From contig JAZDLR010000022.1 of assembly GCA_043801745.1 (NCBI GenBank), positions 1,960-65,959 of the forward strand: 64,000 nucleotides of DNA, in the 5' to 3' direction. Made by a program: the position numbers and the translations under genes. The notes under the pieces are model-generated. The model searched no databases, had not been told where the DNA came from, and saw nothing but the letters and a program-made list of their open reading frames with translations. The stretch comes from Candidatus Komeilibacteria bacterium. GTDB lineage: Bacteria > Patescibacteriota > Patescibacteriia > UBA1558 > 2-01-FULL-52-15. Positions 3,181 to 33,416 of the stretch are shown here, piece after piece (position 1 is the first letter of the stretch; each line of letters begins with the position of its first letter).

Positions 3181-3530
3181 TTGTTAACTGATCGCCAAAG
3201 CTTCTTTGATCTTTTGCACCACTACGTGGTCTTGCTCCAGTCGGGAAAGACGCTGTCTTACTTCCTGAAACTCACGCTGCATTTCCACTTTGGTTGGAAC
3301 CAGCTCGAAGCGTTTATATACCTCTTCAAATCGTTTATCCACACCGTCAAAGCCCTGCTTGATCATCAGGGCTAAATCGTCGTTGGTAACGTTATGATAA
3401 ATGTTTGGCTTAGGCATTGGGATAGGTTAAATTATTAAATTCTGGTAGTCACGTCCCCAATGGACGGGTCAAACCATATCCCTGTTTGAGTCATTCTCTC
3501 ACCTCAGAGAAAATTTGGCAACTGTTCATA
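3181..3530. repeat. Duplicated ~350-bp module (small-protein gene plus conserved leader), copy 1
   Basis: About 93% identical by eye to 5219-5570. The leader contains conserved hairpins TCAAAC-agggatatg-GTTTGA and CGTCC-attgg-GGACG on the minus strand. Confidence 0.8.
3184..3417 (-). CDS. Small 77-aa protein of unknown function (copy 1), predicted helical/coiled-coil C-terminus
   Basis: ATG at 3415-3417. MPKPNIYHNVTNDDLALMIKQGFDGVDKRFEEVYKRFELVPTKVEMQREFQEVRQRLSRLEQDHVVVQKIKEALAIS. The second intact copy is at 5222-5455 with 3 substitutions, which supports a real gene. Confidence 0.6.
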   Translation of the reverse strand: MPKPNIYHNVTNDDLALMIKQGFDGVDKRFEEVYKRFELVPTKVEMQREFQEVRQRLSRLEQDHVVVQKIKEALAIS

Positions 3531-3707: not shown

Positions 3708-3735
3708 TTGACAGCCGAAATAGGCATGCTAATAT
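3708..3735 (+). promoter_or_regulatory. Sigma70-like promoter TTGACA-16 nt-TAATAT (plus strand)
   Basis: TTGACA at 3708-3713, TAATAT at 3730-3735. Followed only by a 21-codon ORF (MKKTLIEVSLYRGLFYFLTHH) that includes the next terminator; this reads as sRNA-like. Confidence 0.4.
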
Positions 3736-3870: not shown

Positions 3871-4380
3871 TTAAGCGGTATTTTTCTTTTTATACTCAAG
3901 TTTATTTCGTAAATTATCTATAAAAGCGATCTTTTCTCTGGCTGTCCGCCTAAGCAAAGTCGAGCAAGTTTTGTAGTAAGGACTAAGAACCCGGGCCAAT
4001 TTATCAGCATTATATAGAAATTTGACAACTGAATAAAAGTCACCATCGCTGGTAATTAATATGACTTGATCAAAATTGCCTTCATAGAAATCAGTGATGA
4101 TCTGCAGAACCATGTCAGCATCAACATTCCCCTTATGATTTCCGTCTGGACCGATAATGACTGGCTTAAACTTCAAAATATATCCATCTTGCTGTAAGCG
4201 GGAATACAGATCCTGATTCTCCGGAATGTAACCAAGAAACAAATAGCATATTTTGACACCATATTTTTCCGCCAAATAGACCCGAAATTTTCGATAATCT
4301 AATTTCCAGCCCAGACTCTGGATTCCTAGATTTAGGTTCTGACCGTCAATATAGGCAAAATTATTAGCATTTTTTATCAT
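3871..4380 (-). CDS. NYN-domain (LabA/PIN-like) ribonuclease family protein
   Basis: ATG at 4378-4380. MIKNANNFAYIDGQNLNLG..KGNVDADMVL..ILITSDGDF, which are NYN/LabA-like acidic motifs. The track start at 4476 is a GTG whose extension crosses the hairpin. Confidence 0.65.
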   Translation of the reverse strand: MIKNANNFAYIDGQNLNLGIQSLGWKLDYRKFRVYLAEKYGVKICYLFLGYIPENQDLYSRLQQDGYILKFKPVIIGPDGNHKGNVDADMVLQIITDFYEGNFDQVILITSDGDFYSVVKFLYNADKLARVLSPYYKTCSTLLRRTAREKIAFIDNLRNKLEYKKKNTA

Positions 4381-4384
4381 AATA

Positions 4385-4407
4385 AAACAGGGCTTTCTTC
4401 CCTGTTT
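4385..4407 (-). promoter_or_regulatory. Stem-loop AAACAGGG-ctttctt-CCCTGTTT, 4 nt upstream of the NYN start
   Basis: Same stem sequence as 2679-2698. The left flank is also similar (attttttA..ATAA.A.AAACAGGG). Confidence 0.5.
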
Positions 4408-4481
4408 ATCTGTATCCGCATTATTGCACTTCTCCTCACAATTGGCAATATGTTCCAAAATGGAACCAGCTGCCACTCAAC

Positions 4482-5114
4482 TTAACTATCCGGAATTTCC
4501 GAATAGTTGCATTTTTTGCAACAGTTGAACACGCCGAACTCATCCCAGAGCCTATTATTCCTATCCCGCAGCCAATTTTGGGGATTCTGGCGGATATATT
4601 CCCGGATTTCAATTAGCGCATCTTCATGGCGAATGATGTGATCATAAAAAGACCGATGCCAAGCAAAATCAGGCAGGCCGGATTGATGGATTGATTTGGA
4701 GGAAATGGTTTTGAAGGCGCAGATGATTTTAGATAAAAGCATATGCTGGCGATAGATTTTATATCTTCTGCAGGCTGCGGTACGGACAACCCTAGGGTTG
4801 TCCGTACGAAATCTTTCGGACTGCCCGAAAAAATCATCTGCGCCCTGCCCCCGATCTTTTATAATTATTATTCCATGCACATGATTAGGCATAATAATGA
4901 AAGCATCTAAAGCAATATAGTGCCAGCGCCTAAGCCAAAGCCAGTTCCTCCTGGCAATCCAGCCGTATTTATTTAGCTGCATCCTGCCATTAATGACTTT
5001 ACCGAAGAAATTTTCATAATTAGCAGTATTGATCGTAATAAAATAATAGCCCGGCTGACTGTAATCATAGCCCTTAAGGCGATTGGCTTTTCTCTGGGGT
5101 AAATCAAGATACAT
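4482..5114 (-). CDS. tnpA: IS200/IS605-family (RAYT-like) HUH tyrosine transposase TnpA
   Basis: MYLDLPQRKANRLKGYDYSQPGYYFITINT..PNHVHGIIII (HUH motif), about 210 aa. The C-terminal 8 codons are encoded by a palindrome. Confidence 0.7.
   Translation of the reverse strand: MYLDLPQRKANRLKGYDYSQPGYYFITINTANYENFFGKVINGRMQLNKYGWIARRNWLWLRRWHYIALDAFIIMPNHVHGIIIIKDRGQGADDFFGQSERFRTDNPRVVRTAACRRYKIYRQHMLLSKIICAFKTISSKSIHQSGLPDFAWHRSFYDHIIRHEDALIEIREYIRQNPQNWLRDRNNRLWDEFGVFNCCKKCNYSEIPDS
4484..4508. repeat. Palindromic element AACTATCCGGAATTTCCGAATAGTT (copy 1 of 2; second copy at 9357-9381)
   Basis: Near-identical palindrome AACTATCCGAAATGTCCGGATAGTT at 9357-9381. Confidence 0.6.
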
Positions 5115-5218: not shown

Positions 5219-5570
5219 TTGTTAGCTGATCGCCAAAGCTTCTTTGATCTTTTGCACCACTACGTGGTCTTGCTCCAGGCGGGAAAGACGCTGTCTTACT
5301 TCCTGAAACTCACGCTGCATTTCCACTTTGGTTGGAACTAGCTCGAAGCGCTTGTATACCTCTCCAAATCGCTTATCCACACCGTCAAAGCCCTCCTTAA
5401 TCATAAGGGCTAAATCGTCGTTGGTAACGTTCTGATAAATGTTTGGCTTAGGCATTGGGATAGGTTTTAAATAATTAAATTTCGGCAGACGCGTCCCCAA
5501 TGGACGGATCAAACCATATCCCTGTTTGAACCATTTTCTCACTTCAAAGAAAGTTTGGCAATTGCTAAAT
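5219..5570. repeat. Duplicated ~350-bp module (small-protein gene plus conserved leader), copy 2
   Basis: See 3181-3530. Confidence 0.8.
5222..5455 (-). CDS. Small 77-aa protein of unknown function (copy 2)
   Basis: ATG at 5453-5455. MPKPNIYQNVTNDDLALMIKEGFDGVDKRFGEVYKRFELVPTKVEMQREFQEVRQRLSRLEQDHVVVQKIKEALAIS. The longer track ORF is an upstream extension. Confidence 0.6.
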   Translation of the reverse strand: MPKPNIYQNVTNDDLALMIKEGFDGVDKRFGEVYKRFELVPTKVEMQREFQEVRQRLSRLEQDHVVVQKIKEALAIS

Positions 5571-5578
5571 TACACCCC

Positions 5579-5607
5579 TTGACAAAATGCATATAATATG
5601 ATAATAT
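5579..5607 (+). promoter_or_regulatory. Consensus sigma70 promoter TTGACA-17 nt-TAATAT driving the G+C-rich protease gene
   Basis: TTGACA 5579-5584, TAATAT 5602-5607. The 5'UTR has two hairpins: GCCCAA-tt-TTGGGC, and CCCCC-ata-GGGGG which overlaps the SD AGGGGGG. Confidence 0.55.
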
Positions 5608-5676
5608 ACTATATTACCAGGTTGTTCATTTTTTTGCCCAATTTTGGGCTTTAACCCCCATAGGGGGGTAACAGTC

Positions 5677-6447
5677 GTGAAGCAGATCTGGTCGCGTTTC
5701 TTGGATGTTCTCCTGCTGGTTAGCACGAGCCTTTTTACCTGGTGGGCCATTAGGGCCATCATTACCCCCATGCTGCAGCACAACACACACCTGGCCCACT
5801 GGAACCCCAGTTTCCTGGCAACCATTGTGGTGGTGTCGGTGTTGGGCCATGAACTGGGCCATGCCTTTTTCATGGAACGCTATGGCCTGAGGACGCGGAT
5901 CTTTCTGCTCGTCTTCATTGGCGGCGCGGTCATCGATCCCAAGAAGATGGCCAAACTGTCGTGGAGCAAGCAGAGCAACATCCTGCTCGCAGGAGTTTGT
6001 GTTAACTTCCTGCTGGGTGTGATTGGTCTTCTGCTTGGACTGTTCGGCATCATCACCATCAGCACGGCCAGCATGTTCGCTCTGGTCAACGGAAGCATGA
6101 TCATCTGGAACTTGATACCCGTTGGACTGTTCGACGGAGGTCGCCTCGCCAAACTGCTCTTCAACAGCATTCCGGAACACGATGACCTCCGTGTCGCCCG
6201 GTACCTGAGTCGCGCTGTGCTGCCGGCTTTCATTGGGCTGTTCGCCTGCGCCGTGATCGACATGATCATCCCTATGACACTCATGGTCTGGGGATTTGGC
6301 TATCAGGCCACTCACGATGACCCCGAGGGCAGCTACAACCCTCTGGCCATGACCAGGGAGGACGTGAGCCGGCTGAGCTGGATCTACCTCTTACTGGTCT
6401 ACGGCGGTGCAGCCCTGCTGCTGCTCTTCGAACTGGTCAGGAAGTAA
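5677..6447 (+). CDS. Peptidase M50 / site-2-protease-family membrane zinc metalloprotease (minimal form)
   Basis: GTG start 8 nt after the SD AGGGGGG. HELGHAF (HExxH) in a TM helix and NLIPVGLFDGGR (the LDG motif of S2P). Multi-TM. G+C visibly higher than flanks. Confidence 0.65.
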   Translation: MKQIWSRFLDVLLLVSTSLFTWWAIRAIITPMLQHNTHLAHWNPSFLATIVVVSVLGHELGHAFFMERYGLRTRIFLLVFIGGAVIDPKKMAKLSWSKQSNILLAGVCVNFLLGVIGLLLGLFGIITISTASMFALVNGSMIIWNLIPVGLFDGGRLAKLLFNSIPEHDDLRVARYLSRAVLPAFIGLFACAVIDMIIPMTLMVWGFGYQATHDDPEGSYNPLAMTREDVSRLSWIYLLLVYGGAALLLLFELVRK

Positions 6448-6457
6448 GGCAACTTAG

Positions 6458-6510
6458 GAACCCGCGCTAGTATCATCCTCTGGATGAGAACGCGCGGGTT
6501 CATTTTTTTT
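6458..6510 (+). terminator. Long intrinsic terminator: GAACCCGCGC-tagta-TCATCC-tct-GGATGA-gaac-GCGCGGGTTC then T8
   Basis: 10-bp outer stem, 6-bp inner stem, T-run. Same architecture at 11148-11200. Confidence 0.7.
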
Positions 6511-6533
6511 ATTCAACAACGACTTGCCGACAT

Positions 6534-6857
6534 TTAGTGCGGAAAGCTAAACTCCCCGAGCAAAAACACGACAATAGTTATGAGGTAAATCAAAGCTAAA
6601 ATTTTCGCCACTGACCAGTCTTTATGTTTAATAACCGTATAGATGCCGAAAATTAATGACAGCGGACCGGATAAGGTAAAGATAATTGACAAAATATTAG
6701 CCAATACTTCTAGCCCGAAATTAGCTTCAATCACCTGCAGATTTCCCCTGATGGCCAAGGCAAAAATAAACTCGAAAATTAACGTGGCGGCCAGAGCCAG
6801 AGCGAACCAGATCGCCCACTGACCGGAACGGCTCTGGGGTTTAAAAGACAATTTCAT
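6534..6857 (-). CDS. Small hydrophobic membrane protein (about 3 TM), co-transcribed downstream of the CARDB protein
   Basis: ATG 6855-6857, 6 nt after the CARDB stop. Hydrophobic segments. Confidence 0.45.
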   Translation of the reverse strand: MKLSFKPQSRSGQWAIWFALALAATLIFEFIFALAIRGNLQVIEANFGLEVLANILSIIFTLSGPLSLIFGIYTVIKHKDWSVAKILALIYLITIVVFLLGEFSFPH

Positions 6858-6863
6858 AGTTTA

Positions 6864-9311
6864 TTACAGCTTGGGATAAACGGTGAAACGTTTAGTAGTT
6901 CTCTGAAAACAACTATTAATAAAAGATACTGACAGATTGTAGGAGGAATTTTTGACATCATATTTGTGCGTGGAAGTAAAATTATTACCACTATCTAAGG
7001 CCGGATGAGTATCTACCTGCCCCCAGGCAACGATAATAGGATCAAAGTAACGCGGCCCGGTACAGCCCGGGTAAGTACCCCAATAATCCATATGGCCACT
7101 AACTGTATAGGTTGCTAGACCGTCATTAGTCTCCGTGACTGTAATACTAGGATAACGGTCACCGGTTGGAGTTGTGGGCTCGGGCGTAACTACCGGATTC
7201 ACCGGTGTCACAGGCGGTGTAACCGGAGGCGTAACAACCGGCTCTGGTTCGGGTACGATTATGGTCGGCGGAGTAACTACTGGTACATCTACTTGCGGGA
7301 TTACGGGAATAGTAATATCGGGTACAGGATTAAGCACACCACCCGGAACATCAACACTGGGATTATTGGATCCGGTGTTATTATCGAAAATATAAGACAC
7401 TGGTGGGTGTTCTTGGATAAACTTCACTCTACCGGGTATCGGAGATGCTAAAGAATTATTATTCTCATTGCTTTCCCTAATCTGTGACTGCGGCGCATCG
7501 CCCGTGCCGTCACCCACGTCAACCGTGGCCTTAAATTTGGTGGCATATTTATAGGAATCATTATTACCGCAGAAAACGTCTTTCTGCGTATAGCGCTTAT
7601 TGCGTCCCAGCGTGCCCATAGTTTCATAACATCCGCCCAAACGCTCACCGAAAATGTTATACCAATCATAAGCCACCCGACTGTTTCTACTCGTGCCTTC
7701 CGTACCTTTATTAATAATAGTTACTTCCGGATGCAGATCGCTGCCGCGGAAATTCATGCCTTCAATTTTCAGATCCGGCGCCGGTAGGTCAATCGTTTTC
7801 GAATTATTACTTTCATTAGATTCGTGAACCAAATTTGAAGCCAGAGGTTCATTGGGATCCTCTGACATATCTAAAGTAACGCGCAGTTTGACTGCTTGTT
7901 CAGCAAATTCTGCCGGACAGGCACGGGCCACGGCTGTAGATGTACGACCCACCCCAAGAGATGCGACTCCAGCTCCGGAACCACAAGTATTGATCACACG
8001 ATTGTTGCTGTCCAGCCATTCAGAAACCAAGTTAAACCTCGGCGCTGTATCAGCTCTACCAGAGTTAATGAAATTAACATTACCAATGCGTTCGCCTCGT
8101 TCATTACGGGCCAGAGAAATTGACGTTATCCGCAAATCTGACAAAGGAATGGTCACTGTCTTAGAATTATTACTTTCATTAGACTCGTGAACTAGATTTG
8201 AAGCCAAAGGTTCATTGGGATCCTCTGACATATCTAAAGTAACGCGCAGTTTAACTGCTTGTTCGGCAAATTCAGGCGGACAGGCACGGGCCACGGCTGT
8301 AGATGTACGAGCTACGCCCAGCGGCTCCACACCAGCGCCAGAACCGCAAGTATTGATCACCCGGCCGTTACTTTCTAGCCATTCTGAAACCAAATTAAAT
8401 CTTGGTGAGGTAGAAAATCTGCCGGCATTAATGAAATTAACATTACCAATGCGTTCGCCTCGTTCATTTCGGGCCAGAACAATTGACGTTATCCGCAAAT
8501 CCGGCAAGGGAATACTGACTGTTTTCGAATTATTACTTTCATTGGACTCATGAACCAGATTTGAAGACTCCGGTTCATCCGGGTTCTCAGACCTGTCCAC
8601 AATCACCCGTAACTTAACAGCTTGTTCAGCGAATTCAGCCGGACAGGCACGGGCTACAGCAGTTGAAATCTCACCAAAACCCAAAGATTCTACTGCCGCG
8701 CCAGAACCGCAAGTATTGATCACCCGGCCGTTACTATCTAGCCATTCTGAAACCAGGTTAAAAAATGAAGGCGTAGAACCACGACCGGTGTTTACTATAA
8801 TTACATTACCAATGCGTTCACCCTGACTATTGCGAGCTAAAGTAAGTGAAGATATTTTCAAATCCGGCAAAGGAATGGTCACTGTCTTGGAATTATTACT
8901 TTCATTGGACTCGTGAACCAGATTAGTAGCCAAAGGATCATCGCTCTCATCTTTATCTATCGTCACGCGCAGTTTAACTGCCCGTTCAGCAAATTCAGGC
9001 GGACAGGCCCGAGCCACAGCTGTAGTTACCCTGGCAATACCCAAGGGTTCAACCGCGGCCCCAGAATCACAAGTATTGATCACCTGGCCGTTACTATCTA
9101 ACCACTCCGACATTAAATTAAACCTCGGACCAGTGGCGGCTCGACCGGCATTAATGATTACGACATTACCGATGCGTTCAGCTTGTGAGTTACGGGCAAT
9201 AGTAATGCTAAGAACCTGCAAATCTGGCAAATTTTCTGCTGCCGCCGGCGTCAGATTAGGCACTAATAAAAAAAATACCCAGAGCAGCGCGATTAGAAGT
9301 TTATATTTCAT
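6864..9311 (-). CDS. Secreted cell-surface protein: signal peptide, 5 tandem CARDB-like repeats (~121 aa each, ..NLVHESNESNNSKT..), Pro/Thr/Val-rich linker, C-terminal Cys-containing domain
   Basis: MKYKLLIALLWVFFLLVPNLTPAAA signal peptide. Repeats LPDL.V.SI.IARN..ERIGNV..IN.GR..T.PRFNL.SEWLDSNG.VINTCGSGA.VE.LG...T.TAVARACP.EFAE.AVKLRV. A PVVTPPVTPPVTP linker. Confidence 0.6.
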   Translation of the reverse strand: MKYKLLIALLWVFFLLVPNLTPAAAENLPDLQVLSITIARNSQAERIGNVVIINAGRAATGPRFNLMSEWLDSNGQVINTCDSGAAVEPLGIARVTTAVARACPPEFAERAVKLRVTIDKDESDDPLATNLVHESNESNNSKTVTIPLPDLKISSLTLARNSQGERIGNVIIVNTGRGSTPSFFNLVSEWLDSNGRVINTCGSGAAVESLGFGEISTAVARACPAEFAEQAVKLRVIVDRSENPDEPESSNLVHESNESNNSKTVSIPLPDLRITSIVLARNERGERIGNVNFINAGRFSTSPRFNLVSEWLESNGRVINTCGSGAGVEPLGVARTSTAVARACPPEFAEQAVKLRVTLDMSEDPNEPLASNLVHESNESNNSKTVTIPLSDLRITSISLARNERGERIGNVNFINSGRADTAPRFNLVSEWLDSNNRVINTCGSGAGVASLGVGRTSTAVARACPAEFAEQAVKLRVTLDMSEDPNEPLASNLVHESNESNNSKTIDLPAPDLKIEGMNFRGSDLHPEVTIINKGTEGTSRNSRVAYDWYNIFGERLGGCYETMGTLGRNKRYTQKDVFCGNNDSYKYATKFKATVDVGDGTGDAPQSQIRESNENNNSLASPIPGRVKFIQEHPPVSYIFDNNTGSNNPSVDVPGGVLNPVPDITIPVIPQVDVPVVTPPTIIVPEPEPVVTPPVTPPVTPVNPVVTPEPTTPTGDRYPSITVTETNDGLATYTVSGHMDYWGTYPGCTGPRYFDPIIVAWGQVDTHPALDSGNNFTSTHKYDVKNSSYNLSVSFINSCFQRTTKRFTVYPKL
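7630..9230. repeat. Intragenic tandem DNA repeat, period about 363 bp, about 4.5 copies, roughly 90% inter-copy identity
   Basis: Near-identical antisense ORFs 7852-8190 and 8215-8553 lie 363 bp apart. Repeated ESNESNNSKT-encoding units. Confidence 0.8.
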
Positions 9312-9356
9312 GCAAATATGGTTAATTAATTACGCGATAATTATAGCATAATTAAA

Positions 9357-9390
9357 ACTATCCGAAATGTCCGGATAGTTGTTTTTGAAC
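9357..9390. terminator. Palindrome AACTATCCG-aaatgtc-CGGATAGTT flanked by T-runs on both strands (bidirectional terminator-like); copy 2 of the tnpA-end palindrome
   Basis: Plus strand: stem plus GTTTTTG. Minus strand: stem plus TTTAATTAT. Lies between the 9412-9666 gene and the CARDB promoter. Confidence 0.5.
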
Positions 9391-9411
9391 AGCAGTGTCC
9401 TCCCGTGCCGG

Positions 9412-9666
9412 TTATTTAACCAACTTGTTATAAACCCAGGCAAAAAAACCAAAATGGCAGAAACCTTCAATGAAGCCCCAGATCACAGCCATAATCACTC
9501 CAAACCAACTCACCGAATAGCCATAGGCACTATAAAATTGCGCCAGCAAATCCGCAAAGGGCCTAAGACCGGGAATCCCAATTAGGGCAGCGATTGTCAC
9601 TAAGCCAAAGCACAGGGCACCATAAATGCCCGCGGCTAAGGCGAATTTGAGAGTATTAAGTTTCAT
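9412..9666 (-). CDS. Small membrane protein (2-3 TM), unknown function
   Basis: ATG 9664-9666. Hydrophobic segments. Confidence 0.4.
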   Translation of the reverse strand: MKLNTLKFALAAGIYGALCFGLVTIAALIGIPGLRPFADLLAQFYSAYGYSVSWFGVIMAVIWGFIEGFCHFGFFAWVYNKLVK

Positions 9667-9724
9667 ATCTTATGTTAGCTATTTAGATGCTAATTATAGC
9701 TTATTTTAGCGTTTATAGTTACCT

Positions 9725-9753
9725 CTTGACAAGGACATCAATATATGCTATTA
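9725..9753 (+). promoter_or_regulatory. Consensus sigma70 promoter TTGACA-17 nt-TATTAT for the G+C-rich two-gene cassette
   Basis: TTGACA 9725-9730, TATTAT 9748-9753. An about 75-nt 5'UTR ends in the SD GGAGGAG, 6 nt before the ATG. Confidence 0.6.
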
Positions 9754-9833
9754 TGATTTAATACTTAAGTCCTTTGAAATTCGGCTAATCACAGCCTTTT
9801 CAATGTTCACCATCCTACCCTACGGAGGAGTCA

Positions 9834-10766
9834 ATGAACTACGTGGAATTTGTTCGGACCAACAACGGTTTTGCCCAGGCCAAGTTGCAGAAGGCCGCTC
9901 TCGACATCGCCCAGCTGCTTGACAACAACGAGCTGCTGCCGGTGAATGGAAAGGACGGCTATACGCGCGAACGCCAGGCAAAGCTGCGCAGTCAGGTCTT
10001 CGATGACTTTTGCGTCGTCTGCTTCCGGGTCGGTGTGGCTGTCCCCGACCTCGAGCCCGCTCTCTACGAGGGCATGATCGAGGCACCCAAGAAGGAGCAG
10101 CTGGAGAAATTCACTGCTCTGAAGCGCCAAGTGTTCCAGCGCTTGCGCGGCCAGAACAGCCGCCAGGCCAAGGAAGCGCGCGCTCTGGTGCGCGCCATGT
10201 GCGTGTTGGCTAACTACCTGGAGGACAACTCCTTCAGCGGCGCCAAGCTGGACAACATGCTCGGCGTGCTGAACCAGCGCATCGTTGGACTCGGTCTGAA
10301 ACCGGTCCGCGACGACTACACCACCCGCGAGGTGCGCGTAAGGTTGGACGGGTCTGATCCCGGCAAGCCGACAACCGTCGTGGTTGTTGACGACTCCAGT
10401 GAGGAGCTCATCAAGACCGCACTGGCTCTGGCTGGCTGGCCCAACCTGCAGGTGGTTCTGTACCGGCAGCGACTTGAGGGCGAAGCCTACGGCCTCCGGG
10501 GTGAAAGAAAGACACAGGAGTTGAACCGGGCGGCGCAGGAGATCATGGCTTTTAACCCGGCAGTGATCCTAATGGACATGGGTCTTGCTGGTTTCGAGGG
10601 TACTGAGCTGGTTCGCCAGCTGCAGAGCCTGAGCAACAACATCCAGTACATTGCCAACACCGGCGGAACTCCTGATGAGCTTTACTCGGTCGGAGCGCTG
10701 GAGAACTGCGAAAAGGGACGAAACATGGCCGGCATGCGCCAGGCCATGAGAAATCTGGCTGCCTAA
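9834..10766 (+). CDS. Protein with a novel ~190-aa N-terminal domain fused to a C-terminal CheY-like receiver (REC) domain; no recognisable output domain
   Basis: C-terminus TTVVVVDDSSEELIK..AVILMDMGLAGFEGTELVRQLQ..YIANTG resembles the receiver acidic pocket and phospho-Asp region. The N-terminal 190 aa match nothing I recognise. High G+C codon usage. Confidence 0.5.
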   Translation: MNYVEFVRTNNGFAQAKLQKAALDIAQLLDNNELLPVNGKDGYTRERQAKLRSQVFDDFCVVCFRVGVAVPDLEPALYEGMIEAPKKEQLEKFTALKRQVFQRLRGQNSRQAKEARALVRAMCVLANYLEDNSFSGAKLDNMLGVLNQRIVGLGLKPVRDDYTTREVRVRLDGSDPGKPTTVVVVDDSSEELIKTALALAGWPNLQVVLYRQRLEGEAYGLRGERKTQELNRAAQEIMAFNPAVILMDMGLAGFEGTELVRQLQSLSNNIQYIANTGGTPDELYSVGALENCEKGRNMAGMRQAMRNLAA

Positions 10767-10805
10767 CCAAGGCCAGCCTCGGACTTTAGCGGAAAGGAGC
10801 TACAC

Positions 10806-11129
10806 ATGTTCTTGCTGTACGTAGTCCTCATTCTGGCGGGCTGGGGACTGGCTGGCGTGGCCGCCAACTACCTCCACGACTTTCTGCTCGGCAAAGGTAA
10901 GCCGGCAGGTTACGGCTGCTGTGAGGACTGGGACAAGGCTTGGGCTCAGTACCAGCACGACCGCGATCAGCGCGAAATTGCGCTGGTTGCACTGGGTCCG
11001 TTCGGCATTCTGCTCATTCTGGCGATCTGGCTGTTCTTCCAGATGATCAAGATCGCCTTCCAGGCCGTCTGCGCCGCCGTCGTTTTTCTGCGGCGCGTGT
11101 TCATCAAGCCGAGCCTGATGGCGCTCTAA
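10806..11129 (+). CDS. Small membrane protein (2 TM) with a Cys-pair-containing loop; second gene of the cassette
   Basis: SD AAAGGAG 7 nt upstream of the ATG. MFLLYVVLILAGWGLAGVAANYL..GPFGILLILAIWLFF hydrophobic segments. Confidence 0.45.
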   Translation: MFLLYVVLILAGWGLAGVAANYLHDFLLGKGKPAGYGCCEDWDKAWAQYQHDRDQREIALVALGPFGILLILAIWLFFQMIKIAFQAVCAAVVFLRRVFIKPSLMAL

Positions 11130-11147
11130 CACTGAGTGTCAACAACA

Positions 11148-11200
11148 GAACCCGCACTAGTATCATCCATCGGATGAGAACGTGCGGGTTCTTCTTTTTT
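11148..11200 (+). terminator. Long intrinsic terminator GAACCCGCAC-tagta-TCATCC-atc-GGATGA-gaac-GTGCGGGTTC then TTCTTTTTT
   Basis: Same design as 6458-6510, with a compensatory G:C to A:T change in the outer stem. Confidence 0.7.
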
Positions 11201-11217
11201 ACAAAAAAATATTACCC

Positions 11218-11892
11218 TTATGAACCGTAGCGCTGCAGCAGCTCTTCGCGGCTAATCGAGGCCAGAGCAGTATCACGCAGATCAATATCGTGGCTCTCAC
11301 CCTTTTCCTCGTCAGTTAACTGCCGCACAGTAAAACCCAGACGTTCCAGTAATGAACCACGACTGGCCACAATCCAGGAAATGCCAACTATATACTTGAT
11401 ATCCGGACTATTCTTAACAATAACAGCCAACTCCTTTAATCCTGACTTGATTAGATTGACCTTTTCTACTGCCGGCGTGGTCTCATTCGGCGCCACGTGT
11501 AAATATATAGTATCTCCATCAATACCGTAAGCGAGCAGCTGGTTAATGACCATAAAATCCTCGCGCTGCTGGAATTCTCTGCGCGCCACAACATCCCACC
11601 GTTTAGGATAATTTTTCTTTACAATCAGCAGAGGCTCTAGTATTTTAAAAACTGCGGCCACAAAATCATCTTTATTCTCTAAGCTCGCGCAAGTGGCAAA
11701 TTCAGCGGCCAGTTCCTCGGGCGAAATAATTAAAAGTTCGGCAAATCCTGTGAGCCGCTTTTGAATTTCCTTGATTGCTCCGGCCGCGCCTCCTTCTGAG
11801 TCATAACTGTCAGCAATTGATAATTTAACTCTTTGGGCCAGTTCTGCGTCATAGACCGGAGATTCTACTGGTTGTTCGGGCATTGATTCCAT
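11218..11892 (-). CDS. Hypothetical protein (224 aa)
   Basis: ATG start, 224-aa ORF. No recognised motifs. Confidence 0.35.
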   Translation of the reverse strand: MESMPEQPVESPVYDAELAQRVKLSIADSYDSEGGAAGAIKEIQKRLTGFAELLIISPEELAAEFATCASLENKDDFVAAVFKILEPLLIVKKNYPKRWDVVARREFQQREDFMVINQLLAYGIDGDTIYLHVAPNETTPAVEKVNLIKSGLKELAVIVKNSPDIKYIVGISWIVASRGSLLERLGFTVRQLTDEEKGESHDIDLRDTALASISREELLQRYGS

Positions 11893-11909
11893 AATAGCTA
11901 TTAAATAAC

Positions 11910-12467
11910 TTATTGAAGAAAAAATAGTTCCTTAATTTTATCAGCCTGAATCTTATCGTGACCGGCCAGTAATTTAGTATAGGCTACTTTAGCTGCTTGC
12001 TGTACCTCGGCAGACTGTATAACTTCAGGTGGAAAACTATATTTTTCCAAAATATCCTGCACCGTGTAGACGTCTTTGATATAATTTAAGGCTGATATTA
12101 AAGCCTCCAGAACAGCTTGCTGCAATTCACTGGCACTAAGCGGAAAGTCCTGTAACATTTCGTCATTAATATGATCATAACCATTAGACAAATTATAGAC
12201 AAATTGCTCGATTATAGCCTGACGGACTTCTTGGCTTTGCATAACCTCCGGCAATAGTTTACTTTTCAACCTAGCGGCTAAATCCGCTTTTCCGGCTTTA
12301 AGTTGGCTGAGTAATTCCTCCTTATAGCCTTTCTGCTCCTCAGTTAAACTGTCAGCGTCAAGTTGCTGTTCTGCACTGTCATAATCCAAGGCTTCTCCAG
12401 TTTCAACTTTCTGACTCAAAGTACTAGCTTCGTCTTGAGCTTTTTCCCAGGTATATTTTTCTATCAT
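11910..12467 (-). CDS. Hypothetical acidic protein (185 aa)
   Basis: ORF in an apparent operon with the flanking minus-strand genes. Confidence 0.35.
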   Translation of the reverse strand: MIEKYTWEKAQDEASTLSQKVETGEALDYDSAEQQLDADSLTEEQKGYKEELLSQLKAGKADLAARLKSKLLPEVMQSQEVRQAIIEQFVYNLSNGYDHINDEMLQDFPLSASELQQAVLEALISALNYIKDVYTVQDILEKYSFPPEVIQSAEVQQAAKVAYTKLLAGHDKIQADKIKELFFLQ

Positions 12468-12478
12468 TGGTCTAGCTG

Positions 12479-13105
12479 TTAGTTATTGACGTCCACAATT
12501 TCCATAGCATCATCTTTGATGTGGACATATTGATTATTCGTGAGTAGAAGTAATGGTACTTGGTTATCACGATAGACGATCTTCAATCGTTCATTCAAAT
12601 ACCTATCTTTAAAATTTTCAGAACCCCAATGAGGCAGAATAGTAAAATTCACAAAGTTATAACAGATTTGGTTTTCCAAATCAGCCGCTTCACTGGCAAA
12701 GTAATCCGGCAATTTCGGACCAGCGATTATCGAGCCAGCACTTGTTCCGATGTAGATTTTTCCTTTGTTGCGTATTAGATCCTTAATTACCGCTAAAAAT
12801 CCTGATTTTTGTGACTGCTCTAACAAATAGACAGTGTCTCCGCCACACATATAAATATAGGCAAATCCTTGGAGATCGTCGGCTAACTGTTTTTCCGCTT
12901 TCCCGGTAATAGTATAGTCAGTCACCTCGAATCCAGCTGTCACCAGCGCCTGCCGATCATTCTTAAGCCAGGTCATATCGCTCCGCTCCCATTTGGGCTC
13001 TGCGGCTGTATCAATAAAAACCAACTTATTTGACACGGGAAGATCAACTCTCTTGGCAATATCGTGGGCTACCGCATGAATTGACGAGGTAAGAAATAGT
13101 TCCAT
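12479..13105 (-). CDS. Peptidase S51 (dipeptidase E/cyanophycinase-like) family protein
   Basis: FIDTA.., CGGDTVYLL, IYIGTSAGSII (Ser nucleophile context). Confidence 0.6.
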   Translation of the reverse strand: MELFLTSSIHAVAHDIAKRVDLPVSNKLVFIDTAAEPKWERSDMTWLKNDRQALVTAGFEVTDYTITGKAEKQLADDLQGFAYIYMCGGDTVYLLEQSQKSGFLAVIKDLIRNKGKIYIGTSAGSIIAGPKLPDYFASEAADLENQICYNFVNFTILPHWGSENFKDRYLNERLKIVYRDNQVPLLLLTNNQYVHIKDDAMEIVDVNN

Positions 13106-32287: not shown

Positions 32288-33416
32288 GAACCTGATTTAG
32301 CACGTTTTGTGTTTGCGCCAGAACTACTTCGGGTGTAAAAGCCGACAAACTGGCCACTCTGTTAGCATTAACAGTTTGTGCCAGTGATTGATCAGTCAGG
32401 GCTCGGACCAAAGCGTCAACCATAGCCGGCCGGTCGCCAATAGTCACCAATAAACCATTCTGACCCGAAGTAATAATTTCAGCATTACCGCCAACAGCTG
32501 TGGCCACAGGTATTAAACCGGCATTCAAAGCCTCCAGCAGCACGTGTGACAATCCCTCATAGGTGCTATTGAGAACAAAAACCCGGGCCGTAGCTAGGCG
32601 CTGCAAGACTTGGTCGTGTGACAATTGACCCAAAACCTCAATAGTAGGGCTAACTTGCGCTGCCTTGACCTGGACTGCTTCCAGCTCCGGACCGTCGCCG
32701 ATCAAGCACAAACGAGCCTCTGGCATCCGGACTAAGACCTCGGGCCAATAACTAATCAACTGCTGGTACTGCTTCCAGGGTACCATACGGCCCACTGACA
32801 CAATTAGCGGCTGCCGTTCTAACCCGGCCACAACCTTCGGCTCAACCGGAGTAAAAGCATTAAAAATAACGGCTATGTCCGCCTCGGCCACTTTCCAACT
32901 TTTAACAATCCCGGCCAAATACTGACTGGGCACTATTACTTTGTCCGCGCGGCGTACCACCCACTGCTGCAATAAACGCATAATTCTTATTCGAACGGGC
33001 AGATTCAGAGCGGTTGAAAACTGCTCTAAAGAATCACGATAACCATATTGCACACCAGCCTGTTCCCAGGCATAATCTCCGGTAACTTTTACGGCCACCG
33101 GTATACCCCACATACCGCCCAGTATTATTGACTGCCAACCGCCGGCAATAGGATTCTGCGCATAAATAACCCCTGCGCCTTGGCAGACACGCCAAAGAGC
33201 CAAAAAATAACGCCAGTGACTGATGATTTTGGAACCGCGCTTTACCCGGATTACAGTAAAAGCAGCGTGAGTTTCGGGAATAATTTCCTCCGAAAAACAG
33301 ACAACTGTTACTTGCTGTCCGTGATTGGCTAACCAACTAGCTAATTTATTACTGAAAATGGCTGGACCGCCGACATCAGGCGGAAAAATACCGGCAGCAA
33401 TAATTACGCGGCTCAT
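32274..33416 (-). CDS. Glycosyltransferase family 4
   Basis: EGLSHVLLEALNAGLIPVATAVGGNAEII. ATGA overlap with the upstream gene. Confidence 0.65.
   Translation of the reverse strand: MSRVIIAAGIFPPDVGGPAIFSNKLASWLANHGQQVTVVCFSEEIIPETHAAFTVIRVKRGSKIISHWRYFLALWRVCQGAGVIYAQNPIAGGWQSIILGGMWGIPVAVKVTGDYAWEQAGVQYGYRDSLEQFSTALNLPVRIRIMRLLQQWVVRRADKVIVPSQYLAGIVKSWKVAEADIAVIFNAFTPVEPKVVAGLERQPLIVSVGRMVPWKQYQQLISYWPEVLVRMPEARLCLIGDGPELEAVQVKAAQVSPTIEVLGQLSHDQVLQRLATARVFVLNSTYEGLSHVLLEALNAGLIPVATAVGGNAEIITSGQNGLLVTIGDRPAMVDALVRALTDQSLAQTVNANRVASLSAFTPEVVLAQTQNVLNQVHGKH

Follow-up and report, generated by a model that had tools for sequence, protein, structure and literature searches.

A compositionally foreign two-gene operon in a Candidatus Komeilibacteria chromosome encodes a receiver-domain protein of an unnamed Patescibacteria family

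A 64,000-nucleotide stretch of a Candidatus Komeilibacteria metagenome-assembled genome (MAG; contig JAZDLR010000022.1), hereafter referred to as the window, contains a compact operon whose base composition sets it apart from the surrounding chromosome. The operon, termed cassette 2, occupies positions 9726-11200 on the plus strand and comprises two genes that are annotated in NCBI as hypothetical proteins of a 131-kb contig, namely gene 1 (V1846_04640), which encodes a protein with a C-terminal receiver domain, and gene 2 (V1846_04645), which encodes a small membrane protein. A second islet of similar composition, cassette 1 (5579-6511, plus strand), carries a gene for a protease of the M50 or site-2 protease (S2P) type. 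The evidence presented below suggests that cassette 2 was probably imported recently by horizontal transfer from a G+C-rich Patescibacterium and that gene 1 encodes a stand-alone response regulator.

The foreign character of cassette 2 is apparent from its base composition. The G+C content reaches 0.59-0.63 across positions 9801-11000 compared to about 0.40-0.47 in the flanks and has fallen back by 11400; calculated for the entire islet it amounts to approximately 60% versus 44% around it, with sharp edges. Within the window, only this segment and positions 5600-6500 deviate so strongly, the next G+C-richest stretches (1601-2200 and 32401-33000) reaching only 0.50-0.52. The G+C content at third codon positions (GC3) is 0.765 in gene 1, 0.787 in gene 2 and about 0.76 in the M50 gene, whereas it ranges from 0.36 to 0.53 in 18 native genes, and the steps in both G+C and GC3 coincide with the open reading frames (ORFs) of cassette 2. 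The G+C content at first codon positions is likewise raised in the foreign genes, which indicates that their proteins have long evolved in a G+C-rich genome.

The anatomy of cassette 2 is that of a complete transcription unit. It begins with a sigma-70-type promoter (9726-9754), in which TTGACA and TATTAT are separated by 17 nucleotides and an extended -10 TG is present, giving 11 of 12 matches to the consensus. The promoter is followed by an A+T-rich leader (9755-9823) with a small hairpin (GGCT..AGCC, then Ts) whose folding z-score is only -2.9, and the G+C content climbs only from about position 9800. Gene 1 (9834-10766, 310 amino acids) is preceded by the Shine-Dalgarno sequence GGAGGAG (9824-9830), located 3 nucleotides before its ATG, and gene 2 (10806-11129, 107 amino acids) by AAAGGAG (10793-10799), located 6 nucleotides before its ATG. 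The operon is closed by an intrinsic terminator (11147-11200) composed of an 11-bp outer stem, an internal loop, a 6-bp inner stem, a 3-nucleotide loop and a T-tract, with a folding free energy of -27.6 kcal/mol and a z-score of -7.1; the native gene that follows is 17 nucleotides away, the two lying tail to tail. A scan of positions 5400-11400 with the Rfam models returned no match at E<=1. These features support the description of cassette 2 as a compositionally foreign two-gene operon. The G+C richness, the promoter, both Shine-Dalgarno sequences and the terminator resembling that of cassette 1 had all been listed in the initial annotation of this DNA, and each of them is present. Its inclusion of the promoter among the anomalies of the cassettes has to be corrected, since promoters with the same layout (TTGACA-16/17-TGnTAnnAT) are also found in native intergenic DNA at positions 3708, 3799 and 13484. 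A shared promoter design was therefore rejected as a sign of common cassette origin.

The C-terminal part of gene 1, residues 177-310 (10362-10766 including the stop codon), is a receiver (REC) domain that contains the VVVVDD and ILMDMGL motifs. It displays the catalytic layout of receivers, with an acidic pair after the first beta-strand (D186 and D187), an aspartate after the third (D248), a threonine or serine after the fourth (T276) and a lysine after the fifth (K294). In an alignment of 85 family members, D186 is invariant, D248 is conserved in 84, D187 and K294 in 83 each and T276 in 79, the other six carrying a serine at this position. An AlphaFold2 model calculated from the same 85 sequences (predicted local distance difference test score, pLDDT, 93.1; predicted template modelling score, pTM, 0.89) is made up of eight helices (residues 1-152), a linker in which the motif P-[IV]-R-P-D-Y is conserved, and a (beta-alpha)5 domain at residues 180-309, whose flavodoxin-like fold can be superposed on solved receivers; a run with an alignment of two sequences had given a pLDDT of 46. 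The Pfam REC model (PF00072) scores gene 1 at 22.6 bits (E 1.2e-4) against a gathering cut-off of 30.2 bits. Two relatives score 20.8 and 13.7 bits, P0104 reaches 29.6 bits and P0100 reaches 32.3 bits. The comparison with the profile threshold that the initial annotation had proposed thus leaves gene 1 below and one of its relatives above the cut-off. The assignment is sound despite the weak profile score because the catalytic residues are conserved and one relative passes the Pfam threshold.

The N-terminal part of gene 1 (residues 1-176, 9834-10361), as delimited by the AlphaFold2 model and by sequence conservation, consists of an all-helical domain and the linker. Its conserved residues are K20, D24, L29, R52, F56, P71, E74 and N147, to which R159 can be added. 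A profile of this domain gave only chance-level matches to Pfam models and PDB sequences, and a structural comparison of the two-domain model with the PDB yielded no match beyond the REC part (TMq <= 0.33). None of the libraries scanned recognised a DNA-binding or enzymatic domain in gene 1, and nothing informative was obtained from NCBIfam, PADLOC or PHROGs. Membership in an anti-phage defence system is not indicated either, as the PADLOC models produced a single chance-level match (E 0.014) across gene 1, gene 2, the M50 protein and two relatives. The N-terminal domain has neither a catalytic signature nor a conserved cysteine or histidine site; a metal or redox site at the pair C60/C63 was dismissed because the two residues are only 78% and 65% conserved, respectively. 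The protein had initially been described as a fusion of a receiver with a novel N-terminal domain that lacks recognisable motifs and any output domain. This description is accurate as far as motifs and known output domains are concerned, and the word novel needs to be qualified by the fact that gene 1 belongs to a sizeable, unnamed family in Patescibacteria. Some family members of about 220 amino acids (P0087, P0104 and P0111) retain the first and last helices of the N-terminal domain and have dropped the middle ones, and their NTGG motif is changed to NSD or NTD. In the proteins from loci L028 and L030, the N-termini are Lys/Ala-rich tails reminiscent of nucleic-acid-binding extensions.

The size of the family was revealed by an exhaustive profile search of 1.84 billion representative proteins (clusters at 50% identity). 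The search yielded 142 of them with E<=1e-3, of which 86 also lie at E<=1e-30; nearly all are 290-335 amino acids long and align end to end. A word-indexed search with gene 1 alone had retrieved a single full-length relative, 37% identical. Species genomes were searched with a degenerate DNA pattern for the C-terminal motif NTGG-x4-L-x3-G-x3-N-x2-KG; the pattern matched 28 genomes, and true homologues were confirmed by tblastn in 24 of them. The genomes that harbour homologues are almost all labelled Patescibacteria, Saccharibacteria, Uhrbacteria, Paceibacterota, Moraniibacteriota or Parcubacteria. Two homologues (L019 and L030) reside on contigs of 297 kb and 240 kb, respectively, in MAGs labelled 'uncultured Gammaproteobacteria', which means that the label is mistaken or that the family extends beyond Patescibacteria. 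No relatives of gene 1 were found in IMG/VR contigs, and tblastn gave no match in 50,697 phage and 72,556 plasmid records.

The neighbourhoods of 27 other family members, including metagenome loci, were compared on the basis of 148 neighbouring ORFs within 3.5 kb. Ten loci were read closely (L001, L005 and eight others), and in each of them the homologue is the sole gene of its unit, with a terminator hairpin behind it. In most of these ten a TTGACA-type promoter can be discerned, but not in L009 or L013. An all-against-all BLASTP comparison of the neighbours did not detect a recurrent partner. In a Pfam scan of the same ORFs no family occurred in more than three, and neither M50 nor the kinase families HisKA and HATPase_c were recurrent; the resulting listing is certain only for families matched by at least two neighbours, so that a single M50 neighbour could have been missed. 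Genomes in which the three foreign genes are adjacent had been suggested as a check on their functional association, and tblastn with gene 2 and the M50 protein found nothing in any fetched locus, although the flanks extend over about 1-7 kb, which at some loci is too short to reach a gene located 3.3 kb upstream, as the M50 gene of the window is. At L005 (positions 7760-8000, on a 1.36-Mb contig), the homologue has a leader of about 200 nucleotides with a terminator-like hairpin (around 7938-7970) that directly precedes the start codon and is a possible attenuator.

Foreign composition of the gene is not restricted to the window. In five independent loci the homologue forms a one-gene island whose G+C content exceeds that of its surroundings, by 0.21 in L028, 0.14 in both L016 and L030 and 0.12 in both L019 and L017. 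In L031, L015 and L026 it lies below that of the flanks. The picture that arises is that of a patchily distributed gene of the candidate phyla radiation (CPR) that is part of the native stock of some lineages and reached others by recent transfer, with the member in the window belonging to the transferred group. Gene-by-gene G+C mosaics were seen around family members in L030 (3300-8000, oriented), L015 (6234-7109) and L026 (830-6100), examples being a run of 0.56/0.34/0.50/0.58/0.40 and a 291-amino-acid ORF at 0.61 among genes at 0.37. These mosaics suggest hot spots for the acquisition of single genes.

Gene 2 is much harder to place. Its hydrophobic segments span residues 1-20, 58-80 and 82-100 approximately, with a polar loop (22-57) that contains the sequence GCCEDWDKAW. 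It had been introduced as a 107-residue protein with two transmembrane segments and this loop; length, loop and membrane nature are confirmed, and three hydrophobic segments are seen. A search against 5.8 billion proteins returned only the protein itself, and scans with the Pfam, PADLOC, NCBIfam and PHROGs libraries detected no family, no anti-sigma domain and no other domain. Its good ribosome-binding site, its gene-1-like G+C content at the codon positions and its place between gene 1 and the sole terminator make it most likely that gene 2 is real and co-transcribed with gene 1. No homologue of gene 2 follows any other family member at the 27 loci, and gene 2 is thus not a general partner of the gene 1 family.

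Cassette 1 lies 3.3 kb upstream of cassette 2, and all three foreign genes are located within 5.6 kb. It consists of a promoter (5579-5607), an ORF that starts at 5644 or 5677 and ends at 6447, and a terminator (6458-6511; -28.3 kcal/mol, z-score -5.8). The ORF matches the M50 family (PF02163; E 7e-15, 55.4 bits), and its translation shows both an HELGH motif (HExxH) and, downstream, NLIPVGLFDGG (NxxPxxxxDG), as expected for an M50 protease. The imported protease (5677-6447) is small and devoid of a PDZ domain; its similarities in NCBIfam are at chance level only (E about 0.04) and point to intramembrane metalloproteases for the maturation of ribosomally synthesised and post-translationally modified peptides (YydH/LiaK and daptide types). 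The left edge of cassette 1 is bounded by a duplicated native flank (5219-5564), which stops 14 nucleotides before the -35 element.

Two features connect the cassettes. In codon usage, the two genes of cassette 2 and the M50 gene correlate more strongly with one another (r 0.68-0.80) than with native genes (0.14-0.28). The two terminators are 87% identical over 54 nucleotides, have the same two-stem layout with the shared hairpin GAACCCGCRCTAGTATCATCC-N3-GGATGAGAACGYGCGGGTTC and exhibit one compensatory change in the stem, from G:C to A:U. A 21-nucleotide terminator core occurs at these two sites only within the window, the chance expectation being none, and the hairpin core was not found in the species genomes, the viral contigs or any fetched homologue locus. 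Since the terminators differ by 13%, including the compensated pair, while the coding regions are unameliorated, they probably represent separate copies of a terminator that was already repeated in the donor. Repetitive extragenic palindromes with their associated transposases (REP/RAYT) or an element of the IS200 type were considered as the source of the hairpins and set aside, because only two copies exist, both located 3' of G+C-rich ORFs, and the match to Y1_Tnp is sub-threshold. Taken together, these signatures support the derivation of both cassettes from one donor or donor pool, which does not in itself imply a shared function. Each cassette forms a transcription unit of its own, delimited by a promoter and a strong terminator, and three genes of native composition on the opposite strand lie between the two, in agreement with the earlier observation that native DNA separates them.

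According to the explanation that is considered probable, cassette 2 would have entered the Komeilibacteria chromosome recently as an ordered unit of promoter, leader, gene 1, gene 2 and strong terminator, seated in a variable stretch. The donor would have had a G+C content of around 60% and would most probably have been another Patescibacterium, and the same donor or donor pool may have supplied the M50/S2P cassette. Gene 1 would act as a stand-alone response regulator that is not functionally coupled to this protease. D248 might receive its phosphate from a histidine kinase whose gene lies elsewhere or from a small phospho-donor such as acetyl phosphate, and phosphorylation might alter the packing of the receiver against the helical domain. 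The latter would be the output and would presumably work through binding to a protein or nucleic-acid partner, not through catalysis. Gene 2 would be a lineage-specific small membrane protein that is co-transcribed with gene 1.

A precedent for such a design is PhyR of Alphaproteobacteria, a stand-alone, atypical response regulator with a C-terminal receiver. Compared by description, PhyR and gene 1 share a helical N-terminal domain followed by a REC domain with a complete phospho-acceptor site. Gene 1 is not located beside a kinase gene, and its compact predicted packing is what would be expected if the receiver masks the output; the confident inter-domain geometry of the model (pTM 0.89) is consistent with a masked-output design. 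The N-terminal domain of gene 1 differs in that it has no match to sigma-70 region 2/4 or any other Pfam family. Moreover, the gene 1 family is confined almost entirely to genomes labelled Patescibacteria, and an anti-sigma partner is not found nearby.

Several observations weigh against this explanation. A histidine kinase was seen neither among the 30 ORFs of the window that were scanned nor recurrently near the homologues, so that phosphorylation is unproven. The Pfam REC score falls below the gathering threshold in most tested relatives as well as in gene 1. The N-terminal domain on its own was compared at the sequence level only, and a known fold could hide there. Neither a donor nor a close relative was found, the best identity being 38%. 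With regard to mobility, the homologue matches the composition of its host in about half of the loci and the degree to which it deviates more than neighbouring genes has only weak statistical significance (p 0.026), so that the term mobile fits some members of the family but not all. Finally, the arrival of two imports from one donor pool at a distance of 3.3 kb has no explanation here and would be easier to understand if the genes acted in concert.

Both cassettes could alternatively be phage-type morons or units shuffled by repeated promoter/stem-loop elements like the PeSLs, left behind by a Patescibacteria phage or mobile element endowed with many such units of promoter, gene and terminator. 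Morons are characterised by a promoter and terminator of their own and a G+C content unlike that of their surroundings (PMC2920897), and the cassettes share these properties as units of one or two genes inserted between unrelated genes. The PeSLs of T4-type phages are regulatory cassettes of a promoter and a stem-loop (PMC2839356, PMC4122927). In the units described here, as in PeSLs, ORFan-type genes lie between a strong promoter of the sigma-70-like kind and an efficient stem-loop terminator, and the stem-loops are homologous; the 13% divergence of these paralogous copies next to unameliorated coding sequences points to a family of stem-loops that was already present in the donor, as in the case of PeSLs (PMC2839356). 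The duplicated flanks beside cassette 1 and the neighbouring ORF with a weak resemblance to HUH/Y1 transposases would also fit. On the other hand, the cassettes reside in a bacterial chromosome region whose flanking genes are not phage genes, and not in a prophage. PHROGs yielded no match for any of the three proteins, and relatives of gene 1 are missing from the phage, plasmid and IMG/VR collections mentioned above. Only two stem-loop copies, and hence two units, are visible, with a hairpin core that is absent from the viral and species-genome collections. Furthermore, the promoter resembles host promoters in general instead of being part of a conserved composite motif, and there is neither a phage context nor a sign of recombination between elements. 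An origin of this kind is judged unlikely. The cassettes also differ from those of integrons, in which promoterless ORFs, each with an attC site behind it, are arrayed beside an intI integrase: they are not contiguous and have promoters of their own, an integrase ORF was not found in the first 15 kb of the window, and the hairpin with its T-tract fits a terminator, although no search with an attC model was made.

A bolder reading holds that the N-terminal domain is a new output domain of response regulators, that gene 1 is a Patescibacteria-specific signalling switch which moves among CPR lineages as a one-gene unit ready for expression, and that in the donor it may have worked with the S2P protease and gene 2. 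It has been retained, as an improbable option, because the domain has no detectable relatives outside the family, several unameliorated one-gene islands exist and the cassettes carry common donor signatures.

Cooperation of the three genes in one signalling/proteolysis module, as put forward in the initial annotation, is viewed as quite improbable. In this proposal, the protease cleaves the membrane protein encoded by gene 2 and the REC protein is the effector, by analogy to sigma/anti-sigma cascades that operate by regulated intramembrane proteolysis. Well-known examples of S2P-mediated proteolysis are RseP/RseA and SpoIVFB/pro-sigma-K. The presence of a genuine M50 ORF with HExxH and NxxPxxxxDG motifs and a significant Pfam match in cassette 1 and of a small membrane protein in cassette 2 is in line with the proposal, and a joint import is plausible in view of the common foreign codon usage, the homologous terminators and the location within 5.6 kb. 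Against the proposal stand the lack of co-occurrence, which the initial annotation had itself named as refuting it (neither M50 nor a gene 2 homologue was found in the flanks, about 1-7 kb long, of the 27 other family members), the orphan status of gene 2, which has no anti-sigma domain, and the absence of a sigma factor among the ORFs of positions 5400-13100. The genes are also not organised in one operon but in two separately transcribed units with three opposite-strand native genes in between.

A chimeric assembly, in which G+C-rich reads were joined into the Komeilibacteria contig, is highly improbable: the source is a MAG and near-identical duplications (3181-3524 and 5219-5564) can confuse assemblers, but each islet would require two junctions within one contig, the borders fall exactly at functional signals (an A+T-rich promoter of host design on one side and a terminator 17 nucleotides from a native gene on the other), and similar one-gene G+C islands of the family occur in independent assemblies (L016, L017, L019, L028 and L030).

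The remainder of the window is ordinary chromosome with genes for CTP synthase, a MurA-type enzyme of the EPSP-synthase family, an S41 protease and tRNA-Gln and a long gene cluster for envelope polysaccharides. The cassettes are surrounded by genes for a CARDB protein, an S51 peptidase, small membrane proteins and tRNA-Gln. The variable zone corresponds to the first 13 kb of the window and includes DUF3800, NYN, a HUH/Y1-transposase-like ORF, a duplicated gene of 77 amino acids and the CARDB protein. The 77-amino-acid gene, on the minus strand, is duplicated together with its upstream region (3181-3524 and 5219-5564; 96% identity over 248 nucleotides, then 86% over 98 nucleotides). Within positions 3871-5114, an NYN-domain ORF is adjacent to a 210-amino-acid ORF with a HUH-like HVHGII motif; the latter gives a sub-threshold match to Y1_Tnp (IS200-like) and is situated directly upstream of the duplicated flank of cassette 1. 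The DUF3800 gene (2023-2808) is flanked by G+C-rich intergenic repeats (1726-1829, 2805-2850 and 2864-2967) of 46-101 nucleotides with 78-90% identity, which account for the mild rise in G+C content at 1600-2200. The CARDB-domain surface protein (6864-9311, 815 amino acids), located between the two cassettes and of native composition, contains four tandem repeats of 363 nucleotides (7795-9180) that are 60-85% identical. Exact-protein look-ups of gene 1 and of both flanking native genes retrieved no other contig and hence no cassette-free strain for comparison.

No new system of proteolytic signalling emerges from cassette 2. Gene islets gained by horizontal transfer are a known kind of entity, as are receiver proteins that carry unusual partner domains. 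What is new is that this CPR family has been defined together with its helical domain, and that it is seen to travel as a one-gene unit. Patescibacteria possess tiny genomes, and their sensing and signalling are little understood. A compact receiver family with a high-confidence structural model provides a testable entry into CPR signalling, and the import from G+C-rich relatives of ready-to-express units of promoter, gene and terminator, including one for an S2P protease, bears on how reduced genomes gain functions.

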